Program-made: the position numbers and the translations under genes | The notes under the pieces: model-generated | Told to the model about the DNA's origin: nothing | The model's input: only the letters and a program-made list of their open reading frames with translations | Database searches by the model: none | NCBI GenBank assembly: GCA_020632335.1 | Contig: JACKFV010000001.1 | Coordinates: 510,001 to 542,000 of the forward strand | From: Candidatus Saccharimonadota bacterium | Lineage (GTDB): Bacteria > Patescibacteriota > Gracilibacteria > UBA4473 | Reading direction: 5' to 3' | DNA length: 32,000 nucleotides | Part shown: piece after piece, positions 5,607 to 32,000 of the stretch | Layout: each line of letters opens with the position of its first letter | Numbering within the stretch: position 1 is the first letter of the stretch

Positions 5607-6662
5607 TGCTTTGCGCTGGGCTTTACTGAGTTTCTCTGGATAAGTGTACGCCACGGTGAGGATATGGTCCCCCTGGTGCGAGCCGTTTTTGACGCCCTTG
5701 CCCTTTATCCGCAGCTTTTTGCCGTCGGGGGTGCACTCCTTCAGCGTGAGCTCCACCGTGCCCCAGTAGGTACTCACGTCCATTTTTTTGCCCAGCAGCG
5801 CGTCGAATACCGGTACCGCTAGCGTGCTATGCAGGTCACTCCCCACGCGGGTAAAGCGGGGGTCACTCACCACGCGTATGTGGAGGTAGAGGTCTCCGGC
5901 AGGCCCTCCGCGGCGTCCGGCGTCGCCCTTGCCGCGGATCTTCAGCGTGGCGCGGTCCTCTACGCCGGCGGGTATGTGCACGCTCACCGAGTGCTTCTCC
6001 TCATACCGGCCCTCGCCGTGGCACTGGGGGCAGGGGTGGCGGAAGGTCTTGCCTTCGCCCTGACAGTCGGGGCAGAGGGCCTGCTGCTGTATCGTCCCGA
6101 GGATACTCTGTACGCGCTGGGTGACGACACCGCGACCCTGGCACGTCTTGCAGGTTTCGGGCTCGGTGCCGCCCTTGGCATCGCAGGTGGTGCAGGACAC
6201 ATAGCTCCGTGCAGTGATGCTCTTCTCAGCCCCCTCCATCATCTCGTCGAAGCCCAGCACCACCTCGGCCTCTAGGTCATTGCCGCGCTGCTGTGGGGTG
6301 CGGGTTTGACTCCCCATACCGCCCCCCATTCCACCGCCAAAGAACTGGTCGAAGATGCCTCCCATACCCCCAAATGCGCTCTGGAAGTCCTCATAGTTCA
6401 TCTGCTGGTAGCCTCCTCCACCGCCACCAAAGCCGCCAAAGCCCCCTCCTGCGCGCCCCCCAGCAGCGCCAAACTGGTCATACTGCTGGCGTTTTTTGCT
6501 ATCGCTCAGCACCTCATAGGCCTCGTTAATGGCCTTGAACTGCGTTTCATCGCCGCCCTTGTCGGGGTGGTGCTCCTTGGCTAGTGCACGGTAGGCTTTC
6601 TTAATTTCCGCCTCAGTAGCGGTCTTGCTTACCCCGAGTGTCTTGTAGTAGTCCTGCGCCAT
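5589..6662 (-). CDS. dnaJ: molecular chaperone DnaJ
   Basis: J domain (DYYKTLGVSKTATEAEIKKAYRALAKEHHPDK), a G/F-rich region and four CxxCxGxG zinc motifs (CTTCDAKG, CKTCQGRG, CPDCQGEG, CPQCHGEG). Start set to ATG 6662, supported by a -10 hexamer 6 nt upstream. Confidence 0.95.
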   Translation of the reverse strand: MAQDYYKTLGVSKTATEAEIKKAYRALAKEHHPDKGGDETQFKAINEAYEVLSDSKKRQQYDQFGAAGGRAGGGFGGFGGGGGGYQQMNYEDFQSAFGGMGGIFDQFFGGGMGGGMGSQTRTPQQRGNDLEAEVVLGFDEMMEGAEKSITARSYVSCTTCDAKGGTEPETCKTCQGRGVVTQRVQSILGTIQQQALCPDCQGEGKTFRHPCPQCHGEGRYEEKHSVSVHIPAGVEDRATLKIRGKGDAGRRGGPAGDLYLHIRVVSDPRFTRVGSDLHSTLAVPVFDALLGKKMDVSTYWGTVELTLKECTPDGKKLRIKGKGVKNGSHQGDHILTVAYTYPEKLSKAQRKALEPLV

Positions 6663-10717: not shown

Positions 10718-12069
10718 ACTGCTGTATCATTACCAAAGAATCGCTGTATCCACCGCTTGGCCGTGCTGAGGGGCCGTGGTTTTACTGTCGGGAGGGGAGG
10801 GGGAGCTATCGCACGCAGCGACTGCGCAAAGCCATCACTCGCGTGGCGGAAGTACACATAGGCCTCATACGGGTCCTTATAGGGCGAGAAATAGGTGTGT
10901 ACGTCGCCATCGCTGAAGTACTTGGTGCTCATGTAGTACACGTGGTCTGAGGTAGAGAGCCGCCCGAGCTTCTCCCACTGGGGGGTCCAGTTTAGGTCTG
11001 GTCGGGCTGTTTGTAGTGCCCGGAGCCTCTGCTCCAGCTCCGCCAGGACAGCCAAGGCGTCGTGCTGCATCTGGTTATCTCGCCAGGCGCTCAGGTCTCG
11101 CTCGGTATCTGCCCAGCTGACCCAGTCATCTGCCCGGTAGCTGCCATAACGCGGGAAGGCCCGCAGTGTCTCTGTCGCTGTGCGGAAGCTAATCCCCTCT
11201 GCCCTGCAGGCCGCCGGCAGATGCTGGAGGAAGGCAAAGATCCCCGTATCCTCCCACTGGTGCTCGCCAAAGGTCTCAAAATCCATACAGATATTCACGC
11301 TCTCTCCCCACGTCTGCTGCACGCGGTGGGCGAACTGCTCGCTCGTCAGCGGCTGGTGGCTGAACCGAAACGCGATGTCATCGCTCAGCCTATAGTGCTT
11401 GGTCAGCACCCCATAGTCTGTTGCCACGCTCTGCTGCGGGAAGACTTCTCGCCGGAAGGCCTCTGCGAGCGCCTGCACCGCTGGCTCCAGCGGCACCAGA
11501 TGCGCCGAGCGCACACGAGTAGCGTGGGGGTCTGGCAGGGCTGTGTGCCATCCCTCGGCCATGATGCCCGCAAAGCCCATCGCTCGCACCAGGGTGGAGA
11601 GGTCATCGCGGTACAGTAGCTCGGTATGGCGGAACACCTGTGGCGTTACGCCAAAGTGCTGTTGCAGGGCTCGGACGTGCTGCCGCACCTGCGTGATGAA
11701 GAGCGCCGGGCTGTAGAGGTAGCTGAGGCTATGGTAGTAGGTCTCGGCCAGCAGCTCTAGCCGCCCGGTGGCCACCATGCGCTGCAGCAGGCTGAGCACT
11801 GGTGCGCCATACTCGGGGTAGGCCAGGCACTGCTCCAGGAGCGTCCCGGTGATGCTGAGCGTGAGGGTTATCTCCCCCGCCTGCAGCTGGGAGAGCAGTA
11901 TCTCCAGCGTGGGGAGGTAAGACTTGGCCGCTACCTTGCGGAAGACCGCTTCATTCCCCTGGCTGTTCTCCGGCCCATGCCACCAGTCTGCCGGCGGAGC
12001 ACTGCGTCTGCTGGGGCTCAGGCGCCATGGCTGGTGCAGGTGCAGGTACAGGCAGATCGACTGGCTCAT
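10714..12069 (-). CDS. glycoside hydrolase family 57 (alpha-glucan-active enzyme)
   Basis: The N-terminal ICLYLHLHQPWRL (HQP motif) and MDFETFGEHQWEDTGIF (catalytic-region ETFGEH motif) are GH57 hallmarks. Confidence 0.8.
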   Translation of the reverse strand: MSQSICLYLHLHQPWRLSPSRRSAPPADWWHGPENSQGNEAVFRKVAAKSYLPTLEILLSQLQAGEITLTLSITGTLLEQCLAYPEYGAPVLSLLQRMVATGRLELLAETYYHSLSYLYSPALFITQVRQHVRALQQHFGVTPQVFRHTELLYRDDLSTLVRAMGFAGIMAEGWHTALPDPHATRVRSAHLVPLEPAVQALAEAFRREVFPQQSVATDYGVLTKHYRLSDDIAFRFSHQPLTSEQFAHRVQQTWGESVNICMDFETFGEHQWEDTGIFAFLQHLPAACRAEGISFRTATETLRAFPRYGSYRADDWVSWADTERDLSAWRDNQMQHDALAVLAELEQRLRALQTARPDLNWTPQWEKLGRLSTSDHVYYMSTKYFSDGDVHTYFSPYKDPYEAYVYFRHASDGFAQSLRAIAPPPLPTVKPRPLSTAKRWIQRFFGNDTAV

Positions 12070-13316
12070 GAGAGATAGGGGCTATAGAGCTGCCGCACGA
12101 GCGAGGCCTGGGTATCCCAGCTCAGCGTGGGGAGTGATTGCAGGGCCTTTTCTCGTAGGGTGCGGCGCAGTGCTGGGTAGGCCGCTAGGTTCAGCAGATG
12201 CTCGGCAAAGAGCGCGCTATCCCACCAGTCAGCGCTCAGCTTGTGGGTGATGAGCTCTGTGGCGCCACAGGTGCTACTCACCACCAGGGGGGTATGGTGC
12301 ATCACGGCCTCCAGGGCGATGAGGCCAAAGGGTTCAGAGACGCTGGGGATGAGCATGGCGTCGGCCCGGGTATAGAGCGCGTCGCGGACTGGCCGGTTGA
12401 TGAACCCCAGGTAGTGCACGTTGTCTCGTAGTGGCGGGGTGCTGACGCTGTACCGCACGTGGTCCTCCAGCTCGCCCTGCCCCCCCGCGAGGAAGAAGTG
12501 CATCTGCGGGTTAGCGGCTATGCAGCGCTGCGCGGTATCCAGCAGTGTGGCAATGCCTTTGTGGTAGGTAAACCGCCCGATAAACAGCACCCAGAACTGC
12601 CCTTGGTCCTTCGGCCAGACCTTCTCGTAGTCCAGCTCCCCCTCGGGTGAGCGGTCGTTGTATGCGTTGTGGACCACCGTTATCTTCTCTGCGGGCACGT
12701 CGTAGTGGTCCATCAGTACCTGCCGGGTGTACTGGCTCACGGCCAGTAGGCGGTCTGCGCCGTGCATGCTGCGGTATTCCCGCTCATAGACCTCCCCACT
12801 GCGGCTGAAGTGCCCCGGGTGCATGTCATAACTGGTCAGGTGCACGTGCATGAGGTAGGGCGTGCCGTAGCGCTGTTTGATCTCCAGCGCGACGGTACCG
12901 GTGATCCAGTCCTGCGCGTGCACCAGGCAAAACTGCCGGTGCGCTAGCTTCGTGAGTGCCTCGGCGGTGTAGCGGTCTATCTCGGCATAGAGGTTTTCTC
13001 CGTATACATTCCGCGGTAGAGAGCCCGTACGCCGCAGCCGGTGGCGGTACTCGGCGGGGGTCAGGTAGGGCGAGAAGAGCGTGGTACTCACCCGCAGCGT
13101 CTCGAGGGGAGGCGTGTCTCCATCGAGCAGGGGGAGCAGCGCATTCTCCGGTGCGAGGACTACCCGCCTGGCGATGTAGTCTGGCAGCAGCAGCGTCATG
13201 GGGACTCCCTGCAGCAGGAGTGCTCGCAGTAGCTGGTCTGTCACCACTCCCAGCCCTCCAGACATCTCTGGCGGATACTCCCACCCCAGCAGCAGCACAC
13301 CATCAGCAGTAGGCAT
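12066..13316 (-). CDS. glycosyltransferase, glycogen/alpha-glucan synthase-like (GT4/GT5 fold)
   Basis: ORF trimmed to ATG 13316 (MPTADGVLLLGWEYPPEMSGGLGVV...). It has a GGLG-type N-terminal motif and a C-terminal PSVSEPFGLIALEAVMHHTPLVVSSTCGATELI (E-x7-E-like GT-B motif). Confidence 0.8.
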   Translation of the reverse strand: MPTADGVLLLGWEYPPEMSGGLGVVTDQLLRALLLQGVPMTLLLPDYIARRVVLAPENALLPLLDGDTPPLETLRVSTTLFSPYLTPAEYRHRLRRTGSLPRNVYGENLYAEIDRYTAEALTKLAHRQFCLVHAQDWITGTVALEIKQRYGTPYLMHVHLTSYDMHPGHFSRSGEVYEREYRSMHGADRLLAVSQYTRQVLMDHYDVPAEKITVVHNAYNDRSPEGELDYEKVWPKDQGQFWVLFIGRFTYHKGIATLLDTAQRCIAANPQMHFFLAGGQGELEDHVRYSVSTPPLRDNVHYLGFINRPVRDALYTRADAMLIPSVSEPFGLIALEAVMHHTPLVVSSTCGATELITHKLSADWWDSALFAEHLLNLAAYPALRRTLREKALQSLPTLSWDTQASLVRQLYSPYLS

Positions 13317-13324
13317 CTGTGCCC

Positions 13325-13353
13325 ACTCTATGCATTGCCGCTGCGCTTGCCTA
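13325..13353 (-). promoter_or_regulatory. candidate promoter of the GT-GH57-psd-pgi operon (TAGGCA-17-TAGAGT)
   Basis: On the reverse strand, TAGGCA at 13353..13348, a 17-nt spacer, TAGAGT at 13330..13325, then 8 nt to ATG 13316. The -35 is weak. Confidence 0.3.
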
Positions 13354-13430
13354 CCCAATGCACTTGCCAGGCCAAGAACTCATGGTAATGCTCTGGTAGA
13401 CAAGCGCGGGAGAATCAGTACAGGGAGACT

Positions 13431-24888: not shown

Positions 24889-25323
24889 ATGGGACTGGAA
24901 TCACCAGAGAAATTCCGACACAAAGGCCCCGAGAGTGACACCGGGCTGGAGTACCGCGAGTCTGACACCGCACGAGACGCACGGCTAGCCCGGGAGGCAG
25001 AGAAAGATTTTGAAGCCGGGATGAAAGCCCACCAGGGCATAGAAGCGCAGCAGCGCCAGGCACAGAGCGCCGCAGAGAAGGCTCAGCAGCAGCAAGGGCG
25101 CACCACCACAGCAGAGGGCAAAGACAAAAGTGCAGCGGAGAAGCTCCTCTCAGACACGCTGGGAGTGAAAGCCCCGGAGGACATGGAAGCGATGTCTGGC
25201 GCTGCTATAGAGGACTCCACGCTGATGTCTGGTGCTGAGAAAAACCTGGTACGGAAGACGAGTAATGAGACAGAGGCAGAGCGAATCAAGCACGAACACG
25301 CCGAAAAACAGAAGACCCCCTAA
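24889..25323 (+). CDS. hypothetical highly charged, low-complexity (probably disordered) protein
   Basis: ORF 24835..25323 trimmed to ATG 24889. It is rich in E, K, Q and A, has no TM segment and no recognised motif, and shows moderate third-position G/C bias. The stop is 1 nt from tRNA-Leu. Confidence 0.45.
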   Translation: MGLESPEKFRHKGPESDTGLEYRESDTARDARLAREAEKDFEAGMKAHQGIEAQQRQAQSAAEKAQQQQGRTTTAEGKDKSAAEKLLSDTLGVKAPEDMEAMSGAAIEDSTLMSGAEKNLVRKTSNETEAERIKHEHAEKQKTP

Positions 25324-25324
25324 T

Positions 25325-25409
25325 GCCGAAGTGGCGGAATTGGTAGACGCGCACGACTCAAAATCGTGTTCCGCAAGGAGTGTGGGTTCGATTCCCACCT
25401 TCGGCACCA
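25325..25409 (+). tRNA. tRNA-Leu (anticodon CAA), long variable arm, CCA encoded
   Basis: Acceptor GCCGAAG/CTTCGGC, anticodon stem CACGA/TCGTG with loop CTCAAAA, a long variable arm, T arm with TTCGATT, discriminator A, then CCA. Confidence 0.92.
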
Positions 25410-25481
25410 TCATGAGGAGGAGCTCTTCTGCAGGCAGTAGCAGGGGTAGAAGCTTGCTCACTCGCTCACTTGCTTGTCGCC

Positions 25482-25934
25482 TCACTCTAGGCTATTTTTT
25501 CCGATGGATTTCTCTAACCACCATGCCCCCAGTGCGCCACCGCCGCAGCACACTATGAGGAAGACACACAACGCGAGGAAGCCCGCGGGGTCATCTGCTG
25601 GGTGGTGGTATAGGCGTATATAGAGGCCCGCTAGCACCAGGAGTATGCTGCAGAGCAGTGCCTTCCAGCGTATGCTTCGGAGCGTATGGAGCGCGGCCGC
25701 TGAGCCGAGAGTACCGTGTTTGCCATGCTCCAAGAGCTGGAAGATGTGGTAGAGAAGCAGCAGCCCGAGCACGGCTATGAGAGCGCCGTAGAGGATAAAC
25801 GGGTCAGTGTATACCTCCAGCAGCGGCAGGCCCTGGGCGCGGCCTTCGGTCAGTGGTAGCCACACCAGAGCCCCGAGTACGGCTATACTCAGCAGTATGA
25901 GGAGTCCTTGGAGGAGGGTGAGGAGGGGCCTCAT
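25482..25934 (-). CDS. small 4-TM membrane protein (tentatively DUF2975-like), third gene of the RT operon
   Basis: ORF 25482..26096 trimmed to ATG 25934 (MRPLLTLLQGLLILLSIAVLGALVWL...). It has four hydrophobic helices. Its ATG overlaps the TGA of the upstream ABC-like gene (ATGA at 25931..25934). Confidence 0.65.
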   Translation of the reverse strand: MRPLLTLLQGLLILLSIAVLGALVWLPLTEGRAQGLPLLEVYTDPFILYGALIAVLGLLLLYHIFQLLEHGKHGTLGSAAALHTLRSIRWKALLCSILLVLAGLYIRLYHHPADDPAGFLALCVFLIVCCGGGALGAWWLEKSIGKNSLE

Positions 25935-27571
25935 AGGGTGGGGGATGCTGTGTGGTTGGCCATCACCATGACGGTATGCGCAAAAGCCTGGTCTTTCTCG
26001 GCGAGGAGGAAGGGCTGGAGCCAGGCGTATTCCTCGTGGAGGATGAGCAGCTGTGGTGGCCAGAGCAGTGCTCTGAGGTACTGGAGGGTTCCCCACTGCT
26101 GCTGGGTGAGGGCGCTGGGGGGCAGTGGCTGGCGCAGGTCATGGTGCTGGAGGAAGGCAAAGAGCGGCGCTTGCAGGTACTGGCTCAGGCGTGGGAGTAC
26201 GGTGAGCGGATCGCCTCCTGCCTGGCTGAGGTAGTGGATGAGCGGCAGGCTGGTGATAGTGTGGGGGCTTATATACTGCCGCGTGATGCTCGCTCGGGCA
26301 TAGGCATTGCCCTGCAGGCGGTAGCGACGCTGGGCTGTCTGGAGGATGACCATCCATACGCGTTGCTGAGAGGGCGTGAGCTCCCCCATGAGGGCCTGGA
26401 GCACCACCGGGGTCTCTGCAGTGGAGAGGTGCGTGAGCTCTCCCACCGGGAAGGCGTGGCTATAGTGCGGCTGCACCGTGCCGTCTGCCAGGCGCAGGTG
26501 CCGCGTACGGAGTGTGATACCGGGGGCATGCAGCTGTGGGAAGCGATGCCGGGGTAGTGGAGCACCAGACTCTGGCAGGCAGAGCACCAGCCCCAGTTGC
26601 AGCGGGAAGGCATAGAGCCCCACCCGGAGCGCGAGGAAGAGCAGTTGCACCGCTACCCCCATCAGCAGGCCATAGCTGAGCAGCCCACCGTTGAGGTGCT
26701 CCAGCCCCAGAGGCACATAGAACTGCACCCAGTACCCCAGTGCTGCCAGCAGTGTGAGCAGGGCAAAGAGCACATACTGGGGGAATTGCATCCCCAGTTC
26801 TCGGGCGGTGCGGAGTGTGGTGTCGGTCTCCATGAGTTGCTGGTAGTGGCGCAGGGCAGGGCCGAGTGTGGCCGTCTGGCGGTAGTGGGACTGCTCTTTG
26901 CTCAGCACGGTGGCCTCCACCAGCAGCTTGCTATAGAAGGTCTGCTCGCGGCTCACCACTCGGCGCACATAGGCGTAGCCGCCCAGGCCCAGCCCCACAC
27001 TGGCCAGCAGTACCCCCATACCCAGCCAGAGCAGACTGCTGTGCATGGTGGCACTGCTGATCATATACATCGTCCAGAGGAGCAGCCACTCCGCGCCGTG
27101 CAGGAGGGTCTGCCTGAGGCCCATACTCAGCAGACCGAAGTGGTAGGTCAGCAGAGAGAGGAGCTGCCCGGTGTCCCTCGCACTGGGGGGGGGAGTACGC
27201 TGCAGGTGGTGCTGGAGCTGGGTGAGGCGCAGCCGGTGCAGGCGCTGGGTGAGGAAGCGCTCGGTAGTGCGGATGTAACGCCAGCGAGCCATGAGATAGA
27301 GCAGGAGAATCCCCGCCACGATGAGGAGCGAGACTACCACCGCGTGCTGCTGGAGCGCGGTAAACTCGGCCCGTATGGTGTGGTGGACGTAGAGCGGGAG
27401 GGCTAGCTCTGCTGCGCTGCAGAGGGTGAGCAGGAGCCCTATCTGCCGGAGGGGCCGGCGTGACCGCTGCCACAGGAGCCGCAGCTGCCGCCATTGCCCG
27501 GGGCTGAGCTGCAGGAGCCGGAGGCTGGTGATGGTATTCAGGAGGCGTCTAGTAATACTGGGACTGTGCAT
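25931..27571 (-). CDS. ABC-exporter-like fused TMD-NBD protein with degenerate ATPase motifs
   Basis: ORF 25931..27724 trimmed to ATG 27571 (MHSPSITRRLLN...). It has about six TM helices and the type-I exporter coupling-region pattern (SARDTGQLLSLLTYHFGLLSMGL). The C-terminal NBD-like domain has substituted motifs. Walker A is replaced by GELTHLSTAETPV, with no GK(S/T). The signature LSGGQ is replaced by LTQQQ. Walker B hhhhDE is replaced by LLILHEE. The Q-loop Q and H-loop H are apparently retained. Its start overlaps the RT 3' end by 23 nt. Confidence 0.7.
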   Translation of the reverse strand: MHSPSITRRLLNTITSLRLLQLSPGQWRQLRLLWQRSRRPLRQIGLLLTLCSAAELALPLYVHHTIRAEFTALQQHAVVVSLLIVAGILLLYLMARWRYIRTTERFLTQRLHRLRLTQLQHHLQRTPPPSARDTGQLLSLLTYHFGLLSMGLRQTLLHGAEWLLLWTMYMISSATMHSSLLWLGMGVLLASVGLGLGGYAYVRRVVSREQTFYSKLLVEATVLSKEQSHYRQTATLGPALRHYQQLMETDTTLRTARELGMQFPQYVLFALLTLLAALGYWVQFYVPLGLEHLNGGLLSYGLLMGVAVQLLFLALRVGLYAFPLQLGLVLCLPESGAPLPRHRFPQLHAPGITLRTRHLRLADGTVQPHYSHAFPVGELTHLSTAETPVVLQALMGELTPSQQRVWMVILQTAQRRYRLQGNAYARASITRQYISPHTITSLPLIHYLSQAGGDPLTVLPRLSQYLQAPLFAFLQHHDLRQPLPPSALTQQQWGTLQYLRALLWPPQLLILHEEYAWLQPFLLAEKDQAFAHTVMVMANHTASPTL

Positions 27572-28778
27572 GGTGGAGGGAGATATGTCCGTGGTGGACC
27601 TGCAAATACAGCCGGTAGAGCGACGGCCAGGGCAGGCTATGGCGCGCAAAGAGGGCCTGGGTATGGCGGTGCAGGCGTGGGCTGTAGTCCCCATAGACTG
27701 CCCGTACCAGCTGCCGCTGCCCATACCGGGTGAGGGAGCGCAGCTGCGGGAGGTCCGTTACGTGGGGCGCTGATTGGATCAGCTGCAGGTGCTGCTGGTG
27801 CACTGCGGGGAGGATACGCCACCGCAGGCGGGAGAGCAGGGCGTGCTGGGGGAGGGCATAGTGCCGACAGAGTGCCCGGTAGGTGGCCTGGAGGCGTACT
27901 ACGCGCTTCTGGCTGAGGGAGAGAATCCCATCGCTGAAGTGGTAGCCCAGGTAGGTAAAGGCCGTCGTGTGGAGGGGCCCGGTGGTGGTTTTCTCCGGTT
28001 GGATGGGCAGGCCACGCGCTGCGGTGGTGGCCTCGAGCCACTGGGCTGCGTGGGCAACGCGTGCGGGGTGAGGATCGATGAGGAGGATGTCATCGCCTAC
28101 CCGCCTATAGAGCTGCACCTGGCGTGAGAGGGTGTGGTCTGCGTCGCTGAGGTAGAGATTCGCAAAGAGCGCCATCAGCGGGACGCCCTGCACCACCCCC
28201 TCGCTGAGGTAGCGAAGCTGCCCCTGCTGCCAGAGCGGCACGTGCAGGTAGCACTGCAGCGCGGTGAGTACGGCGGGTTCTAGCCCCAGGGCTGCCAGCT
28301 GGGTGAGGAGAAGATCGTGCTGGAGGTGCTCGGTGTACTCGGTGATGTCGGTCTTATAGAGGGTATCACCGGGTAAGTGGCGGTGGTAGCGGCGCACTAC
28401 ACTGCGGGCGGCACGGTGGCTGGGGTGGCTGCTGCGGTAGGAATAGAGGCTGGGGGAGAGCGTTGCCTCGACCACAGGAGAAAGCGCCTGAGAGAGCGCC
28501 TGGGCACGCACGCGGTCCCGCAGGGTGTAGAGGTAGATGGTGCGGGTTTTCCCCTCGCCTTTGGGTATGGTGCGCACTTGCACGGGGTCCAGCGGGTGGT
28601 GGTGTACCAGGCGCTCGTGTACCTGGGTGAGGAAGGGCACGGGGTCTGCGATGATGCGCTGCATCTGTATGGCATCTAGCCCGGCATAGCGGGAGAGCTT
28701 ACTCTGGAGGGTCAGCTGCTGCACTACCGCAGTGAGGGCCTCTAGCAGGGCGGGTATGCTGGTGAGCTGCTGCCACAT
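27549..28778 (-). CDS. standalone reverse transcriptase (RT fingers/palm motifs 1-7 plus a helical C-terminal domain)
   Basis: Motifs read from the translation are VRTIPKGEGKTRTIYLYTLRDRV (1-2), YSYRSSHPSHRAA (3), KTDITEYTEHLQHDLL (4), GVVQGVPLMALFANLYL (5), LYRRVGDDILLI (catalytic, VGDD in place of YxDD), GLPIQPEKTT (6) and FTYLGYHF (7). I prefer the start at ATG 28778, which has TACTAT 6 nt upstream. The track ORF extends to GTG 28838. Confidence 0.85.
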   Translation of the reverse strand: MWQQLTSIPALLEALTAVVQQLTLQSKLSRYAGLDAIQMQRIIADPVPFLTQVHERLVHHHPLDPVQVRTIPKGEGKTRTIYLYTLRDRVRAQALSQALSPVVEATLSPSLYSYRSSHPSHRAARSVVRRYHRHLPGDTLYKTDITEYTEHLQHDLLLTQLAALGLEPAVLTALQCYLHVPLWQQGQLRYLSEGVVQGVPLMALFANLYLSDADHTLSRQVQLYRRVGDDILLIDPHPARVAHAAQWLEATTAARGLPIQPEKTTTGPLHTTAFTYLGYHFSDGILSLSQKRVVRLQATYRALCRHYALPQHALLSRLRWRILPAVHQQHLQLIQSAPHVTDLPQLRSLTRYGQRQLVRAVYGDYSPRLHRHTQALFARHSLPWPSLYRLYLQVHHGHISLHHAQSQYY

Positions 28779-28807
28779 GCGTGCATAGTAGTACGGGTGG
28801 GCGCCTA

Positions 28808-28989
28808 CAGCAAGCTCTCTGGGAGGGACTGGCCCCACCAGAGCTATGAACGATATATTAGGTTCGTGCCTTCGGGTAGGTCCCTGGATATATCACAGTA
28901 TACGTCGCCATAGGAGCGCTCTCTCCGGAGCGGGGTGCTCCTGGGCCGGTATATACGGAGACACCATTACGGTGAAAGGCTTGCTGCCT
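28808..28989 (-). ncRNA. candidate structured ncRNA or long 5' leader upstream of the RT gene (hypothetical)
   Basis: It lies downstream of a strong promoter-like element (28994..29022). An 8-bp inverted repeat brackets the region: CAGCAAGC at 28986..28979 and GCTTGCTG at 28815..28808 on the reverse strand. An internal hairpin reads AGGAG-cacc-CCGCTC-cggaga-GAGCG-CTCCT (about 28913..28943). There are several A/T-core palindromes (GATATATC, GTATATAC). No convincing ORF is present. Confidence 0.25.
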
Positions 28990-28993
28990 GTAT

Positions 28994-29022
28994 AGGGTAG
29001 AGGGTGCTTTCTCAGGTGTCAA
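28994..29022 (-). promoter_or_regulatory. candidate promoter upstream of the RT locus (TTGACA-17-TACCCT)
   Basis: On the reverse strand, a perfect TTGACA at 29022..29017, a 17-nt spacer and TACCCT at 28999..28994. The predicted start near 28987..28989 is about 210 nt upstream of the RT ATG. Confidence 0.45.
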
Positions 29023-29120
29023 TGCTGCTATTGTCGTTGGGATATCACAATGCAATATCTGCTGTATGGCACAAGAGAAAAGAGTGGATCGGTGGTTGCT
29101 TCCTCCGGTAAACTGCCCTG

Positions 29121-32000
29121 ATGACTCTTCTTTCCATGCGTCACTTCTTCTCCGTTTCGGCTCTGCTTTCTCTGGTATGTTCTTGGCTCCTCCCGCTGGT
29201 ACCCGTCCAGCAGGCCCTGGCGAACATGACCGTGAATAACGACACGGGCCAGGTGCATATTGACTTCACCAACGGGGTGGGCATAGCGCCTGATGGGGCT
29301 CCGCTGCGGGAGAACGTCACTATCAACGGTGGTGGTGGGGGGAGTATCACCATCGCCGGAGGGCAGAACAGTGGCTACTTCACCACGGTAGATATCGCTC
29401 CGGTGAGTTTTGACTCCTGGGGGCAGATCACTCTAGGGGGTATCTACCCCAGTACCACCAGTACTACGGTGAGCCTCTACGAGTGTACCGGGGTGGGAGA
29501 CATCCCCATAGCGGGCTACCAGAATATGACCCCGGTGGCGGGAGTGGTGAACATCAGCACCCTGCCGACGAGCACCAGCTGTGTGCGTGCCCGAGTAGAC
29601 ATGAGCCGCAACGGGGGCACGCTGGCTCCCACGATGACCGACTTTACCCTCAGCTGGACGCCACTGCCGGTACTGCTGACGAACATCACCGGGACGCCCA
29701 CCACCGCGGTAGGCACGCACCTGAACTACAACGTGCAGTACAGTGTGAGCTACTCGCAGGACTCTGGCGTGGTGCTGTGGGTACCACTCCCTGAGGCAGG
29801 GAGCGGCATCGGCTGCCAGACGCTGAGCTTTAACCAAGACGTAACGCCGGCCTTTGTGAGTGCGACTAATGGCGGACTGCTGAATACCACCGGAGGGCCG
29901 ATAACCGTAGCGGGGGTGAGCGTGCCAGACAACGCCGTGTACTGGAATCTGGGAGCTATAGACGCCGGAATAACGGACATTGTGAGCTTTGAGCTCAGCA
30001 CCCAGAATGGCTGGCAAGATGGCATCTGCTATAGCCTGACCAGCTACGCGGATAGCGTGGAGAGTGCCCTGGCAGTGAGCGACAGTAACCCCAGCACTGC
30101 TGGGGCACAGCCCTTTGTGAGTACGCTGACCAGCGAGCCGGCGCCAAGCATCGTGAAGAGAGTGGCTGGTACCATCAGCCTGGATGGCGAGAACCACGTG
30201 TACTTCTTGCCCCCGTATGGGCCACAGGTGACGTATAGCATCCAGATAAAAAATACCGGGGCCATCACGGGGCGAGAGGTGATCTTTGACTCGGTGATTA
30301 CTGATGACCTGAGCGATATCTTCGCTCAGCTGGAGGGGAGCTGTGGGGTGAGTGCCGGCAGCGCTGCTACGCGCATCAGTGGCATCAGCAGCCCTGGGGT
30401 ACTGAGTGGGAATAGCATTGTGTGGGACTTTACGGGGGATCACCTGGCGCCGTATGCCACGCGTACGGTGAACTTTATGGTGGACTACACCGGCTGTGAC
30501 GCCGCCCCCGGGCTGGAGGTAGATAACACCGCTATGCTCGGCGGGGCTAATATGCTGCCCCTGCAAGATAGCGAGGCCGTGGTGATGGATATCCCGCTGA
30601 CGCCCAGTGGGAGCTTTGCCAAAGGGGACGAAGTAGTAGGGGTAGAGATACGCGCGGGGCGAGACGACAACGTACAGCCGAATGACCTGACGACGTACGG
30701 AGACACCGCCACGTACTTCCTGTATACGCAGAACCCCAGTACCGTGCGGCTAGACGACATCGTGATGCTGGATATGGTGCCCGAGGGGGAGACCTTCCAG
30801 AGTGCTTCTCTGCCACCACTGGCCAACGGGACGGTGTGGTACTCGACCGATACGGGCGCTACAGACCCCGCCATACCACCAGCGTATGACTACACGCAGA
30901 TGGCCACCGGTACCCCGCACATGGGGTGGAGCACTACCCTGCCCAGCCCGGCCAGTAGCGTGACGTGGGTGGCCTTCTATATACCGTGTTTGAACTCGCC
31001 CTTCTTCCCCGCGCCGAGTGGGGACGTCTGCGCGATGGCGCCTACCAGCGTCCGCGGGACGATCAAAAATACGGTCGATATTCCGGCGGACCTCTGTAGT
31101 GCCTATAGCATCTTGAATACCGGGAACTTTGCCATCTATGAGGCCAGCACGAGTGTAGTGAATGCGGACACCGACGTGAGCGCGCTGGCTAGCCCTATTA
31201 CCTATACCGATGACACCGAGCAAACCCACGTGACCCCCAGCGTGCCTACCTTCAGCATTAATAGTACTTTCACTGGGCCGTCTACGCTGCCCACCAGTAC
31301 CACGGGGGTGTATACCATTACGCTCAAGAATGACGGTACGGATACCTCTGTGGCTACCACGGTGACGCTGCATATTCCGCAGTTGTTGGTCAATGGAGCG
31401 ATGGAATACCCCTCGGTATTCAACGTAACGGGAGGCACAGCCAACCTCAGCCAGCTGCCTATAGATGGCACGGTGACGGTGACGGTAGGGCCTATCCCTG
31501 CCGGAGCGACCAAGACGGTGCAGTTCAGTGTGCTGGTGCCAGAGGGTATCTTGGTCGGGACTACCCTGAACCTTTCTGCGCAGGTGAGCGCCACGGATAA
31601 TAACGCTTGTACGGTGAATCCGCATACGCTCACGCGCAGTACAGCCCTCACGGCGCTACCAGAGCTCAACGTCTATAAGACGCGGGATGAGGCGCTGATC
31701 GGCTCAGGGGATAGTATCCACTATGACATAGAGCTCTTGAATGTGGGTACGGCCTCCAGCACGCAGACGGTGGTGGTAGACCGCATACCGCAGTACACGG
31801 TGTTTGAGACGGCTTACACCACAGGTACCAATGCAAACGGTACCACCTACACTTGTAGTGGCTGTGATGTCTTCTTTAGCGATGGGAGTACCTTGCCGGT
31901 AGGCTTTGGTACGCCGATAAACCCCATCACTCCTGCGCAGGTGGTGTCGCTCTTTACCCCGGGGGTAGAGACTTCCCCGGGTGTGTGGGGGAGCCCCTTT
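29121..32000 (+). CDS. large secreted/cell-surface protein with DUF11-type (conserved repeat domain) beta-sandwich repeats; 5' partial, continues beyond the window end
   Basis: Absent from the ORF track because there is no stop in the window. The frame is open for 960 codons from ATG 29121. The signal peptide is MTLLSMRHFFSVSALLSLVCSWLLPLVPVQQALA. Repeats are of the type LNVYKTRDEALIGSGDSIHYDIELLNVGTASSTQTVVVDRIP, GVYTITLKNDGTDTSVATTVTLHIP and VTYSIQIKNTGAITGREVIFDSVI. TAAACT sits 6 nt upstream of the ATG. Confidence 0.85.
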   Translation, partial: MTLLSMRHFFSVSALLSLVCSWLLPLVPVQQALANMTVNNDTGQVHIDFTNGVGIAPDGAPLRENVTINGGGGGSITIAGGQNSGYFTTVDIAPVSFDSWGQITLGGIYPSTTSTTVSLYECTGVGDIPIAGYQNMTPVAGVVNISTLPTSTSCVRARVDMSRNGGTLAPTMTDFTLSWTPLPVLLTNITGTPTTAVGTHLNYNVQYSVSYSQDSGVVLWVPLPEAGSGIGCQTLSFNQDVTPAFVSATNGGLLNTTGGPITVAGVSVPDNAVYWNLGAIDAGITDIVSFELSTQNGWQDGICYSLTSYADSVESALAVSDSNPSTAGAQPFVSTLTSEPAPSIVKRVAGTISLDGENHVYFLPPYGPQVTYSIQIKNTGAITGREVIFDSVITDDLSDIFAQLEGSCGVSAGSAATRISGISSPGVLSGNSIVWDFTGDHLAPYATRTVNFMVDYTGCDAAPGLEVDNTAMLGGANMLPLQDSEAVVMDIPLTPSGSFAKGDEVVGVEIRAGRDDNVQPNDLTTYGDTATYFLYTQNPSTVRLDDIVMLDMVPEGETFQSASLPPLANGTVWYSTDTGATDPAIPPAYDYTQMATGTPHMGWSTTLPSPASSVTWVAFYIPCLNSPFFPAPSGDVCAMAPTSVRGTIKNTVDIPADLCSAYSILNTGNFAIYEASTSVVNADTDVSALASPITYTDDTEQTHVTPSVPTFSINSTFTGPSTLPTSTTGVYTITLKNDGTDTSVATTVTLHIPQLLVNGAMEYPSVFNVTGGTANLSQLPIDGTVTVTVGPIPAGATKTVQFSVLVPEGILVGTTLNLSAQVSATDNNACTVNPHTLTRSTALTALPELNVYKTRDEALIGSGDSIHYDIELLNVGTASSTQTVVVDRIPQYTVFETAYTTGTNANGTTYTCSGCDVFFSDGSTLPVGFGTPINPITPAQVVSLFTPGVETSPGVWGSPF

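Follow-up and report, generated by a model that had tools for sequence, protein, structure and literature searches.

A reverse-strand locus in the genome of a Candidatus Saccharimonadota bacterium (assembly GCA_020632335.1), which belongs to a lineage of the Candidate Phyla Radiation (CPR), combines a reverse transcriptase (RT) gene with genes for two membrane proteins. It lies in contig JACKFV010000001.1, in the 32,000-nucleotide stretch from 510,001 to 542,000 that is referred to here as the window. Comparison with related loci, about 100 in total (80 from species-representative genomes and 21 from metagenomes), gives good support to its identification as the most aberrant known copy of a sporadic, mainly CPR cassette. 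The canonical form of this cassette, likewise well supported, consists of a structured non-coding RNA (ncRNA), the RT, a protein resembling ATP-binding cassette (ABC) exporters and a membrane-anchored phospholipase D (PLD)-type protein with two HKD motifs. In the window copy, the core of RT and ABC-like genes is intact and coupled; the PLD has been replaced in place by a DUF2975 protein, the P-loop of the ABC-like protein has been lost, and no ncRNA can be recognised. The locus is therefore a one-off derivative and not a recurrent system made up of an RT, a pseudo-ABC protein and a small protein with four transmembrane (TM) segments; its RT/ABC-like core is probably still functional. The features of the locus and its boundaries, in window coordinates, are:

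28778..27549, reverse strand: RT gene, an open reading frame (ORF) of 409 amino acids (aa) with a 100% protein match to NCBI H6771_02525.
27571..25931, reverse strand: ABC-exporter-like gene, an ORF of 546 aa, with ATG at 27571 and TGA at 25933-25931.
25934..25482, reverse strand: gene of the four-TM (4-TM) DUF2975 protein, 150 aa, with ATG at 25934 and the stop codon at 25484-25482, identified by ORF and Pfam match.
25325..25409, forward strand: tRNA-Leu(CAA), in convergent orientation, 72 nt past the stop of the 4-TM gene; the downstream cassette boundary, context only.
29136 to past the window end, forward strand: DUF11-repeat surface-protein gene with a signal peptide, divergent from the RT gene.
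28779-29135, reverse strand: 357-nt spacer 5' of the RT gene, the usual site of the family ncRNA.

The three cassette genes are real genes and not chance ORFs. The RT gene ends with TAG at 27551-27549 and shares 23 nt at its 3' end with the start of the ABC-like gene, whose stop codon shares ATGA with the start of the 4-TM gene. The ORF coordinates thus bear out the three coupled reverse-strand genes of a preliminary description of this DNA, and the overlaps indicate that the products are made together. In its longest form the RT ORF runs from an alternative start, GTG at 28838, to 27549, but the family alignment and the NCBI annotation favour ATG at 28778. A stable hairpin (GCUCUGG...CCAGAGAGC) at 28844-28814 on the reverse strand spans the alternative GTG, which fits a true start at ATG 28778 preceded by an untranslated leader (28838-28779). 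The preliminary description had extended the locus to 29022; this position is not a gene end but falls in a TTGACA hexamer within the spacer 28779-29135, outside the RT gene. No candidate passed a scan of the locus for sigma-70-type promoters.

The composition of the cassette is strictly fixed across the family. In every related locus with enough downstream DNA (74 unique loci from genomes and 17 from metagenomes), the genes stand in the order RT, ABC-like and PLD, and the third gene is a PLD in 91 of 91. In two genome loci (L068 and L081) and one metagenome locus (L104), the ABC-like and PLD genes stand together on the other strand and are transcribed away from the RT gene. Overlaps as seen in the window are the rule: the RT and ABC-like genes overlap in 60 of 76 loci (median 14 nt), and the ABC-like and PLD genes in 69 of 72 (median 29 nt). 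The survey of synteny proposed in the preliminary description therefore has a divided outcome, in that the association of RT and ABC-like protein is conserved and that with the 4-TM protein is not. The window is the only locus whose third gene is not a PLD, a DUF2975 third gene being unique among 84 loci, and the trio as a recurring unit has to be given up, since it occurs in the window only and DUF2975 homologues stand in unrelated contexts.

A total of 86 stretches was confirmed among 185,579 species genomes, with a sporadic distribution mainly in CPR (Patescibacteria). Only one cassette hit was obtained in viral contigs, a near absence. Paralogues inside one genome are 37-63% identical, which indicates that there has been no recent transposition. 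A full cassette (L006) is found on a 2.96-Mb Longimicrobiales contig (CBDFMQ010000002.1), with ~58% GC in the 326 nt 5' of the RT gene, so that members of the family occur outside CPR too. A large number of loci are from 'binchicken' metagenome-assembled genomes (MAGs) titled 'uncultured Gammaproteobacteria', a label that looks doubtful because the closest RT relatives are from CPR. Among the full-length members, the RT and the ABC-like protein of the window have the lowest scores against the family hidden Markov models (HMMs), and the closest relative of the window RT is 36% identical or less.

The RT family comprises 49 proteins of ~400 aa with 24-33% identity over the alignment; the best local BLASTP identities to the window RT are 25-36%, mostly from CPR lineages. 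Pfam RVT_1 covers its whole model on the window RT (E 7.7e-19), and every residue that is invariant in the family is retained, including D144 and G228-D229-D230 of the VGDD motif. Motif 7 is of the FLGY type. The top curated model is TIGR04416, group II RT/maturase, with 131.7 bits and E 3.3e-38 against a cutoff of 300. The maturase domain (GIIM, PF08388) is on no member of the RT family, while true intron RTs in the same search carry PF08388. Compared with RTs of known structure, the family profile matches best the GsI-IIC RT (E 9e-40), followed by Cas6-RT-Cas1 (1e-34), the defence-associated RT (DRT) DRT9 (9ioa; 7e-18), DRT2 (2e-14), G2L4 (2e-11) and the retron Ec86 RT (3e-7). An AlphaFold2 model of the window RT with pLDDT 95 leads to a similar picture: its top Foldseek match is the GsI-IIC RT, with a TM-score of 0.81/0.78 for a superposition that spans the whole length and takes in the helical region at the C-terminus, and its next structural neighbours are DRT9 (~0.69) and G2L4 (0.70).

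The preliminary description had recognised no partner system of known RTs, and this holds for each class examined. No match to group II intron RNA (Intron_gpII, group-II-D1D4) was obtained at E <= 1 in window positions 25000-29600, nor in locus L072; the ABC-like gene overlaps the 3' end of the RT gene and the score stays below the curated cutoff, so that a mobile group II intron was rejected. In the window, L031, L048 and L054, no template repeat/variable repeat (TR/VR) pair connects the DNA 5' of the RT gene with genes nearby, and a diversity-generating retroelement (DGR) was rejected on this account. The retron signature motifs are absent from the window RT, and across the 49 members NAxxH is never found and VTG only once; with Ec86 matched at E 3e-7 only, a retron was rejected as well. 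The family ncRNA does have a closing stem 5' of the RT gene, and no conserved branching G is evident. The suggested likeness to defence-associated systems was followed up with PADLOC, which returned generic, weak or partial hits on the window RT, the best specific one being UG26 (99 bits, part of the model), but no system match. NCBIfam scored Drt2 at 41 bits (cutoff 390) and Drt3a at 40 bits (cutoff 200), and neither PADLOC nor NCBIfam gave a hit on the two window membrane proteins. A known UG/Abi/DRT family was rejected for want of a member-level model match and because the described UG partner genes differ. No cas genes are present among the window ORFs checked, the RT gene being flanked by the ABC-like and surface-protein genes, and the PADLOC RT-Cas1 model aligns with the RT part only (positions 49-280 of 617); a CRISPR-associated RT was thus rejected. 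Nor does the window contain a PLD.

Taken together, the group II profile and fold match and the absence of intron RNA, retron motifs and TR/VR repeats identify the RT, as far as profile and fold comparison can tell, as a full-length, domesticated enzyme of the group II intron type. In a broad sense it is a group-II-like (G2L) RT, since it agrees with the definition of G2L enzymes as group-II-like RTs without an intron (PMC8632793). The family is not G2L4, which is only a weak match (E 2e-11, TM-score 0.70).

A further conserved component, which was absent from the preliminary description and is undetectable in the window, is a structured ncRNA of ~190 nt 5' of the RT gene. At this place, nearly all family loci contain 240 nt or more without coding sequence, and this spacer is conserved in nucleotides across loci whose RTs are only 30-60% identical. 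The RNA is enclosed by a stem of 12-17 bp (P1), the 3' strand of which ends ~10-15 nt before the RT start in one subgroup. Within it are P2, which is a short hairpin; a long stem topped by a hairpin with a loop of 7 nt, which forms a pseudoknot by pairing with the strand that follows P2; a variable hairpin; a conserved single-stranded UUGRAUUUA; and a further hairpin (P6) with GG-AUUU-CC or CC-GUUU-GG at its apex. The pseudoknot pairing ATATTAG/TTAATAT covaries to ATGCCGG/TCGGCAT, GTTATCA/TGATAAC and CACTAG/CTAGTG. In an alignment of 29 sequences, 94% of the cells are paired and compensatory changes are seen in 24 of 28 pairs; none of 500 shuffles equalled the observed values, and slid alignments pair in 37-51%. 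The ncRNA of L072 has a folding z-score of -4.96. Two covariance models (R1 and R2) together find the ncRNA in roughly 60-70 of the loci searched, and additional subgroups are recovered by nhmmer. All covariance hits with E < ~0.005 lie 5' of the RT gene on the same strand; a few weak hits (E >= 0.006) lie on the opposite strand or elsewhere. No family in Rfam 15 matches the ncRNA.

A TATAAT box is located just 5' of the ncRNA in many loci, e.g. ~8-20 nt before the 5' strand of P1 in L001, L009, L010, L026, L028 and L035, a position that suggests a promoter of its own and a transcription start close to P1. In some loci the ncRNA is followed by an intrinsic terminator. In L045 (4794-8001), the ncRNA (5793-5987) has a terminator at ~5991-6022 and is separated by 2 kb from the RT gene, from which it can be concluded that it is a free-standing gene. 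Two near-identical pilin-like (N_methyl) genes stand between the ncRNA and the RT gene of this locus, and a third copy stands 5' of the ncRNA. Tandem copies of the ncRNA were also found, three in L001 (5135-5947) and two each in L004 (2570-3302), L037 (7610-8003), L042 (909-1541), L064 (7507-8003) and L075 (7550-7958); the duplication in L064 takes in the first codons of the RT gene. A riboswitch or leader of the RT gene could be suspected, given that just a few bases separate the end of P1 from the start codon of the RT gene and that terminators occur in some loci. This explanation is less likely, as the confident covariance hits all sit 5' of an RT of this family, and the ncRNA can occur in tandem or stand alone with its own terminator.

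In the window itself, no match was obtained with R2 in 25300-29400 or with R1 in 28600-29300, with filters off, an nhmmer search seeded with the window sequence gave no significant match, and the spacer has no hit in Rfam. Shuffled sequences yield long-range stems as good as those of the spacer, and the z-scores of its minimum free energy (MFE) are -0.82 and -1.15 (non-significant). The MFE fold of 28995-28800 does have the topology of the family, with a closing stem (28987-28979/28815-28807) and four arms; it is devoid of statistical support, and this candidate fold is speculative and a lead only. The window ncRNA may be too diverged to detect. Two other singleton lineages escape sequence-level detection: L006, which is found weakly by R2 (E 0.003), and L021, for which no match was obtained.

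The middle protein of the cassette is, by sequence comparison, a degenerate ABC half-transporter, as the preliminary description had proposed, and the degeneracy is family-wide. Used alone, the window protein, which NCBI names 'ABC transporter ATP-binding protein', has no match in Pfam or the PDB, and a word-based search with it yields one distant homologue only. An HMM of the family from which it had been excluded gives it 208 bits (E 7.6e-60 at Z = 1e6). The assignment of the ABC fold rests on the comparison of the family profile with the PDB, in which ABCB4, ABCB1, MsbA and PCAT1 are matched on both the transmembrane domain (TMD) and the nucleotide-binding domain (NBD) at ~E 1e-17; single members match Pfam ABC_membrane and ABC_tran weakly. 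Family members are ~570 aa long, and the window protein has five hydrophobic segments.

At Walker A, the family motif GxxxSGK[ST] is replaced by LSTAETPV in the window. Across the family, GK[ST] is kept in 59 of 74 members and GR[ST] is found in five, and the P-loop is fully lost in about ten, the window protein included; at least eight other members without GK[ST] or GR[ST] still have a PLD. The Walker B Asp is retained in 72 of 74 members, the following residue is Asn in 63 of 74 and Glu in none, the H-loop position is Ser or Ala and never His, and no member of the family has an LSGGQ signature motif. The invariant residues are found in the transmembrane region and in the linker after TM6. 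The N-terminal cytoplasmic tail is of fixed length and basic, with a median of 10 Lys/Arg versus 2 Asp/Glu and a median net charge of +7.5; in the window protein it has nine Arg and zero acidic residues.

The third gene of the family encodes a protein of 400-500 aa with two PLDc_2 domains. The first HKD motif is canonical (MHHKFxIxD ... GSxNxT); in the second (LHHHxLIID ... GTNNWS), His replaces Lys to give HxH(x)4D, as in L006:10859-12361. In about one third of the members, the C-terminus is extended by a further domain of ~90 aa in which cysteines are conserved. The nearest PDB structures are Zucchini/MitoPLD, NucT of Helicobacter pylori and Nuc, i.e., the nuclease branch. Exactly one hydrophobic segment, near residue 20, is present in 72 of 75 PLDs, and the net charge is +5.4 before this segment and +1.1 after it. 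By the positive-inside rule, the sole basis for the orientation, the catalytic domains are predicted to be outside the cytoplasmic membrane.

No remnant of the PLD was found in the whole 32-kb window by tblastn and six-frame HMM searches. Its slot is occupied by the 4-TM protein, which, as first described, has four hydrophobic segments and could be identified as DUF2975 (PF11188, 31.8 bits versus a cutoff of 27). It keeps the invariant loop motifs PLTEGRA and DDPAGFL. A total of 517 homologues was found at E <= 0.01, mostly outside CPR; the best 120 of these 517 are 40-51% identical, include many from Bacteroidota and are all annotated with PF11188. In the contexts examined, the homologues are either isolated or accompanied by a small regulator of the HTH_26 type (e.g., in Runella), and no RT or ABC-like gene lies beside them. 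The AlphaFold model (pLDDT 62) was too poor for a fold search. By sequence, the window protein is thus an ordinary DUF2975 member occupying the coupled PLD slot, and it differs from DUF2975 proteins elsewhere in being coupled to RT and ABC-like genes.

The surroundings of the window locus agree with the preliminary description: the cassette lies between tRNA-Leu and the giant DUF11 gene, and the remaining window genes checked are housekeeping genes (response regulator, AddA-like helicase-nuclease, pol III delta', TsaD, transketolase, glycoside hydrolase GH57 and phosphoglucose isomerase (PGI)). A gene at 12066-13358 (reverse strand) encodes a GT4 glycosyltransferase that is additionally recognised by Pfam PF20706, 'GT4 in conflict systems' (E 7.6e-18), and is surrounded by glycogen and sugar metabolism genes (GH57, PGI). 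Across the family, the flanking genes vary from locus to locus. Frequent neighbours are pilin-like, pilus ATPase, coupling-protein and giant surface-protein genes, the enrichment of pilin-like and giant genes being modest and partly due to shared ancestry. In L024, L027, L031, L048, L054 and L170, a giant gene (1400-2150 aa) ends ~300 nt 5' of the RT gene on the same strand. A comparison of the giants of the first five of these loci showed them to be homologous, belonging to a single family, and to contain internal repeats; no similarity was detectable between these five and the DUF11 giant of the window. A gene for an N-terminally anchored protein of ~196 aa without Pfam match lies directly 3' of the PLD gene in 13 loci (L015, L024, L025, L027, L030, L031, L036, L039, L042, L048, L054, L055 and L071), often followed by one or two genes for cupredoxin-like anchored proteins; in L053 and L080 the 196-aa gene is 5' of the cassette instead.

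As for function, the cassette is most likely, by analogy, a conflict module of the retron or DRT kind that operates at the membrane. This frame is chosen because other domesticated RTs that depend on an ncRNA act in this way; the earlier suggestion of abortive infection through a membrane effector is likewise an analogy. In such a scheme, the RT would bind the ncRNA and make DNA from it as a template, as retrons and DRT2, DRT9 and DRT10 do, and the resulting particle would be tethered to the membrane through the ABC-like protein. The latter would be a scaffold or transducer gated by nucleotide binding without hydrolysis and not a pump, and its basic tail is a possible binding site for the RNA or the RT. 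The output would be provided by the envelope-side PLD, or by DUF2975 in the window, and would be directed against phages or foreign nucleic acid. The reading that best explains the whole, namely that the window holds a diverged copy of a cassette in which RT and ncRNA at the membrane drive the output of a conflict system, is given a probability of roughly one half.

Several points weigh against it. The argument for a defence role consists of analogy alone, and no defence genes are found among 20 sampled neighbours (housekeeping or pilus/secretion genes) or among the recurrent neighbour families. The third gene is invariably a PLD, unlike the often-variable effectors of defence systems, and the predicted position of its catalytic domains outside the membrane is a poor fit, an outward-facing nuclease being odd as an effector of abortive infection. 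The sequence does not reveal a cDNA product, a template region or a mode of priming. As regards the window copy in particular, there is no relative closer than 36% identity to the RT, and the loss of PLD, P-loop and ncRNA could mean decay rather than rewiring.

The latter explanation, by which the window cassette is a decaying remnant, is rather unlikely. It would imply that the PLD and the ncRNA have been lost, that DUF2975 is an unrelated gene that landed by tRNA-Leu and does no more than adjoin the ABC-like gene, and that the three genes no longer cooperate. The window is indeed the only locus without a PLD and has a tRNA gene adjoining it, the Walker A motif is lost, two covariance models find no ncRNA, the family HMM scores of RT and ABC-like protein are the lowest among full-length members, and DUF2975 homologues are found in unrelated contexts. 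However, both long ORFs are intact with all family-invariant residues, the 23-nt and ATGA overlaps are kept, and DUF2975 stands exactly in the coupled slot of the PLD. Moreover, the loss of GK[ST]/GR[ST] is shared with at least eight PLD-bearing members, and the escape from sequence-level detection of the ncRNA with the lineages of L006 and L021.

As to function, the chief alternative, which seems unlikely, makes the cassette part of the envelope-related life style of CPR bacteria. The PLD and the exporter-like protein would process or move host-derived nucleic acids or lipids in a manner similar to that of NucT or EndA in DNA uptake, with the RT-ncRNA regulating this process or handling nucleic acid inside the cell. 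The predicted extracellular location of the PLD and its proximity to NucT, Nuc and Zucchini, the presence of the lipid translocators ABCB4 and MsbA among the top ABC matches, the strictly fixed architecture and the near confinement to CPR are all in line with this proposal, as are neighbours that often belong to pili, coupling proteins and giant surface proteins and not to defence. On the other hand, the ABC domain lacks the residues for ATP-driven transport, no uptake pathway with an RT is known, and pilin-like and giant genes are only modestly enriched among the neighbours, in part through shared ancestry. The sporadic occurrence, with so few stretches among the species genomes searched, argues against a core function, and divergent paralogues within genomes also speak against it.

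Finally, a mobile retroelement or classical RT system (group II intron or its remnant, retron, DGR or CRISPR-associated RT) is very improbable, since the group-II-intron-like sequence and fold of the RT, an upstream ncRNA whose terminal stem is superficially retron-like, the abundance of DGRs in CPR genomes (PMC8632793) and the giant surface-protein genes nearby are outweighed by the lack of an intron RNA match, the overlap of the ABC-like gene with the 3' end of the RT gene, the low identity of paralogues within genomes, the near absence of NAxxH and VTG, the weak match to Ec86, and the lack of TR/VR repeats in the window or the giant-gene loci and of cas genes flanking the RT.

It is tentatively proposed that the cassette represents a new class of domesticated RT, in which a particle of RT and ncRNA is wired through a catalytically dead ABC-exporter scaffold to an extracellular nuclease. 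If this holds true, the making of DNA on an RNA template inside the cell would be linked to something that takes place on the outside of the membrane, such as immunity against incoming nucleic acid at the level of the envelope or control of DNA uptake from the host cell by episymbiotic CPR bacteria. The window would then demonstrate that a small membrane protein can take the place of the output module. New biochemistry and new tools have come time and again from the RT systems of prokaryotes, among them retrons, DRTs and G2L4. To these the cassette adds an RT derived from group II introns with a high-confidence fold, a new ncRNA family with strong support from covariation, and two RT partners not seen before, namely an ATPase-dead homologue of ABC exporters and an apparently outward-facing PLD of the Nuc type. 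The biology of defence and host interaction in CPR is barely known, and the cassette is nearly confined to these bacteria. Pairs of ncRNA (~190 nt) and RT (~400 aa) are compact and directly testable in vitro. The interest of the window copy is chiefly evolutionary, as it shows that the RT/ABC-like core can persist without the PLD.

PADLOC 2.0, NCBIfam 20 and Rfam 15 do not list the combination of the cassette components, and it is not described in the RT surveys and reviews consulted (PMC9226505, PMC8934634, PMC8632793, 10.64898/2026.05.14.725207) or in full-text literature searches. The cassette is thus seemingly undescribed and kin to the systems that combine a domesticated RT with an ncRNA and a partner. 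Its unusual feature is that the partners are, by prediction from sequence, membrane and extracytoplasmic proteins.

Among known enzymes, the RTs of group II introns are the closest in sequence and fold, GsI-IIC (PDB 6AR1/7K9Y) being the best match by both criteria; the cassette RT differs from them in having neither an intron RNA nor a GIIM domain and in scoring far below the curated cutoff. The lack of an intron RNA is shared with the G2L RTs. G2L4, which works alone in DNA repair (PMC12337344), is a weaker match, and in contrast to it the cassette RT has a dedicated ncRNA and two membrane partners. UG26, the best specific PADLOC hit, has been linked to a Vsr-like endonuclease (PMC9226505). 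DRT2, DRT9 and DRT10 (UG17) resemble the cassette in having a structured ncRNA directly 5' of the RT, and DRT9 is also the second-best structural neighbour of the RT. However, none of the DRTs is known to have ABC-exporter-like or PLD partners, and the cassette ncRNA is unlike any Rfam family.

The ABC-like protein shares with ABCB1, ABCB4, MsbA and PCAT1 the half-transporter layout and both domains of the type IV exporter fold. Unlike exporters of the MsbA and ABCB1 kind, the cassette family is devoid of the catalytic Glu, the His of the H-loop and LSGGQ, and its gene encodes a conserved basic tail and is always coupled to an RT gene. In overall logic, the cassette resembles Retron-Eco7 (Ec78, type I-A), in which the same four parts, an ncRNA with a terminal stem, an RT, a protein of the ABC superfamily and a nuclease, are united in one operon. 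In that retron, PtuA is a soluble, catalytically competent ATPase and PtuB is a cytoplasmic HNH nuclease. The two systems differ in the lineage of the RT, that of the cassette lacking NAxxH and VTG, and in the nature of the partners: the ABC protein of the cassette combines an exporter TMD with a dead site, and its nuclease is an anchored PLD that is predicted to be extracellular.

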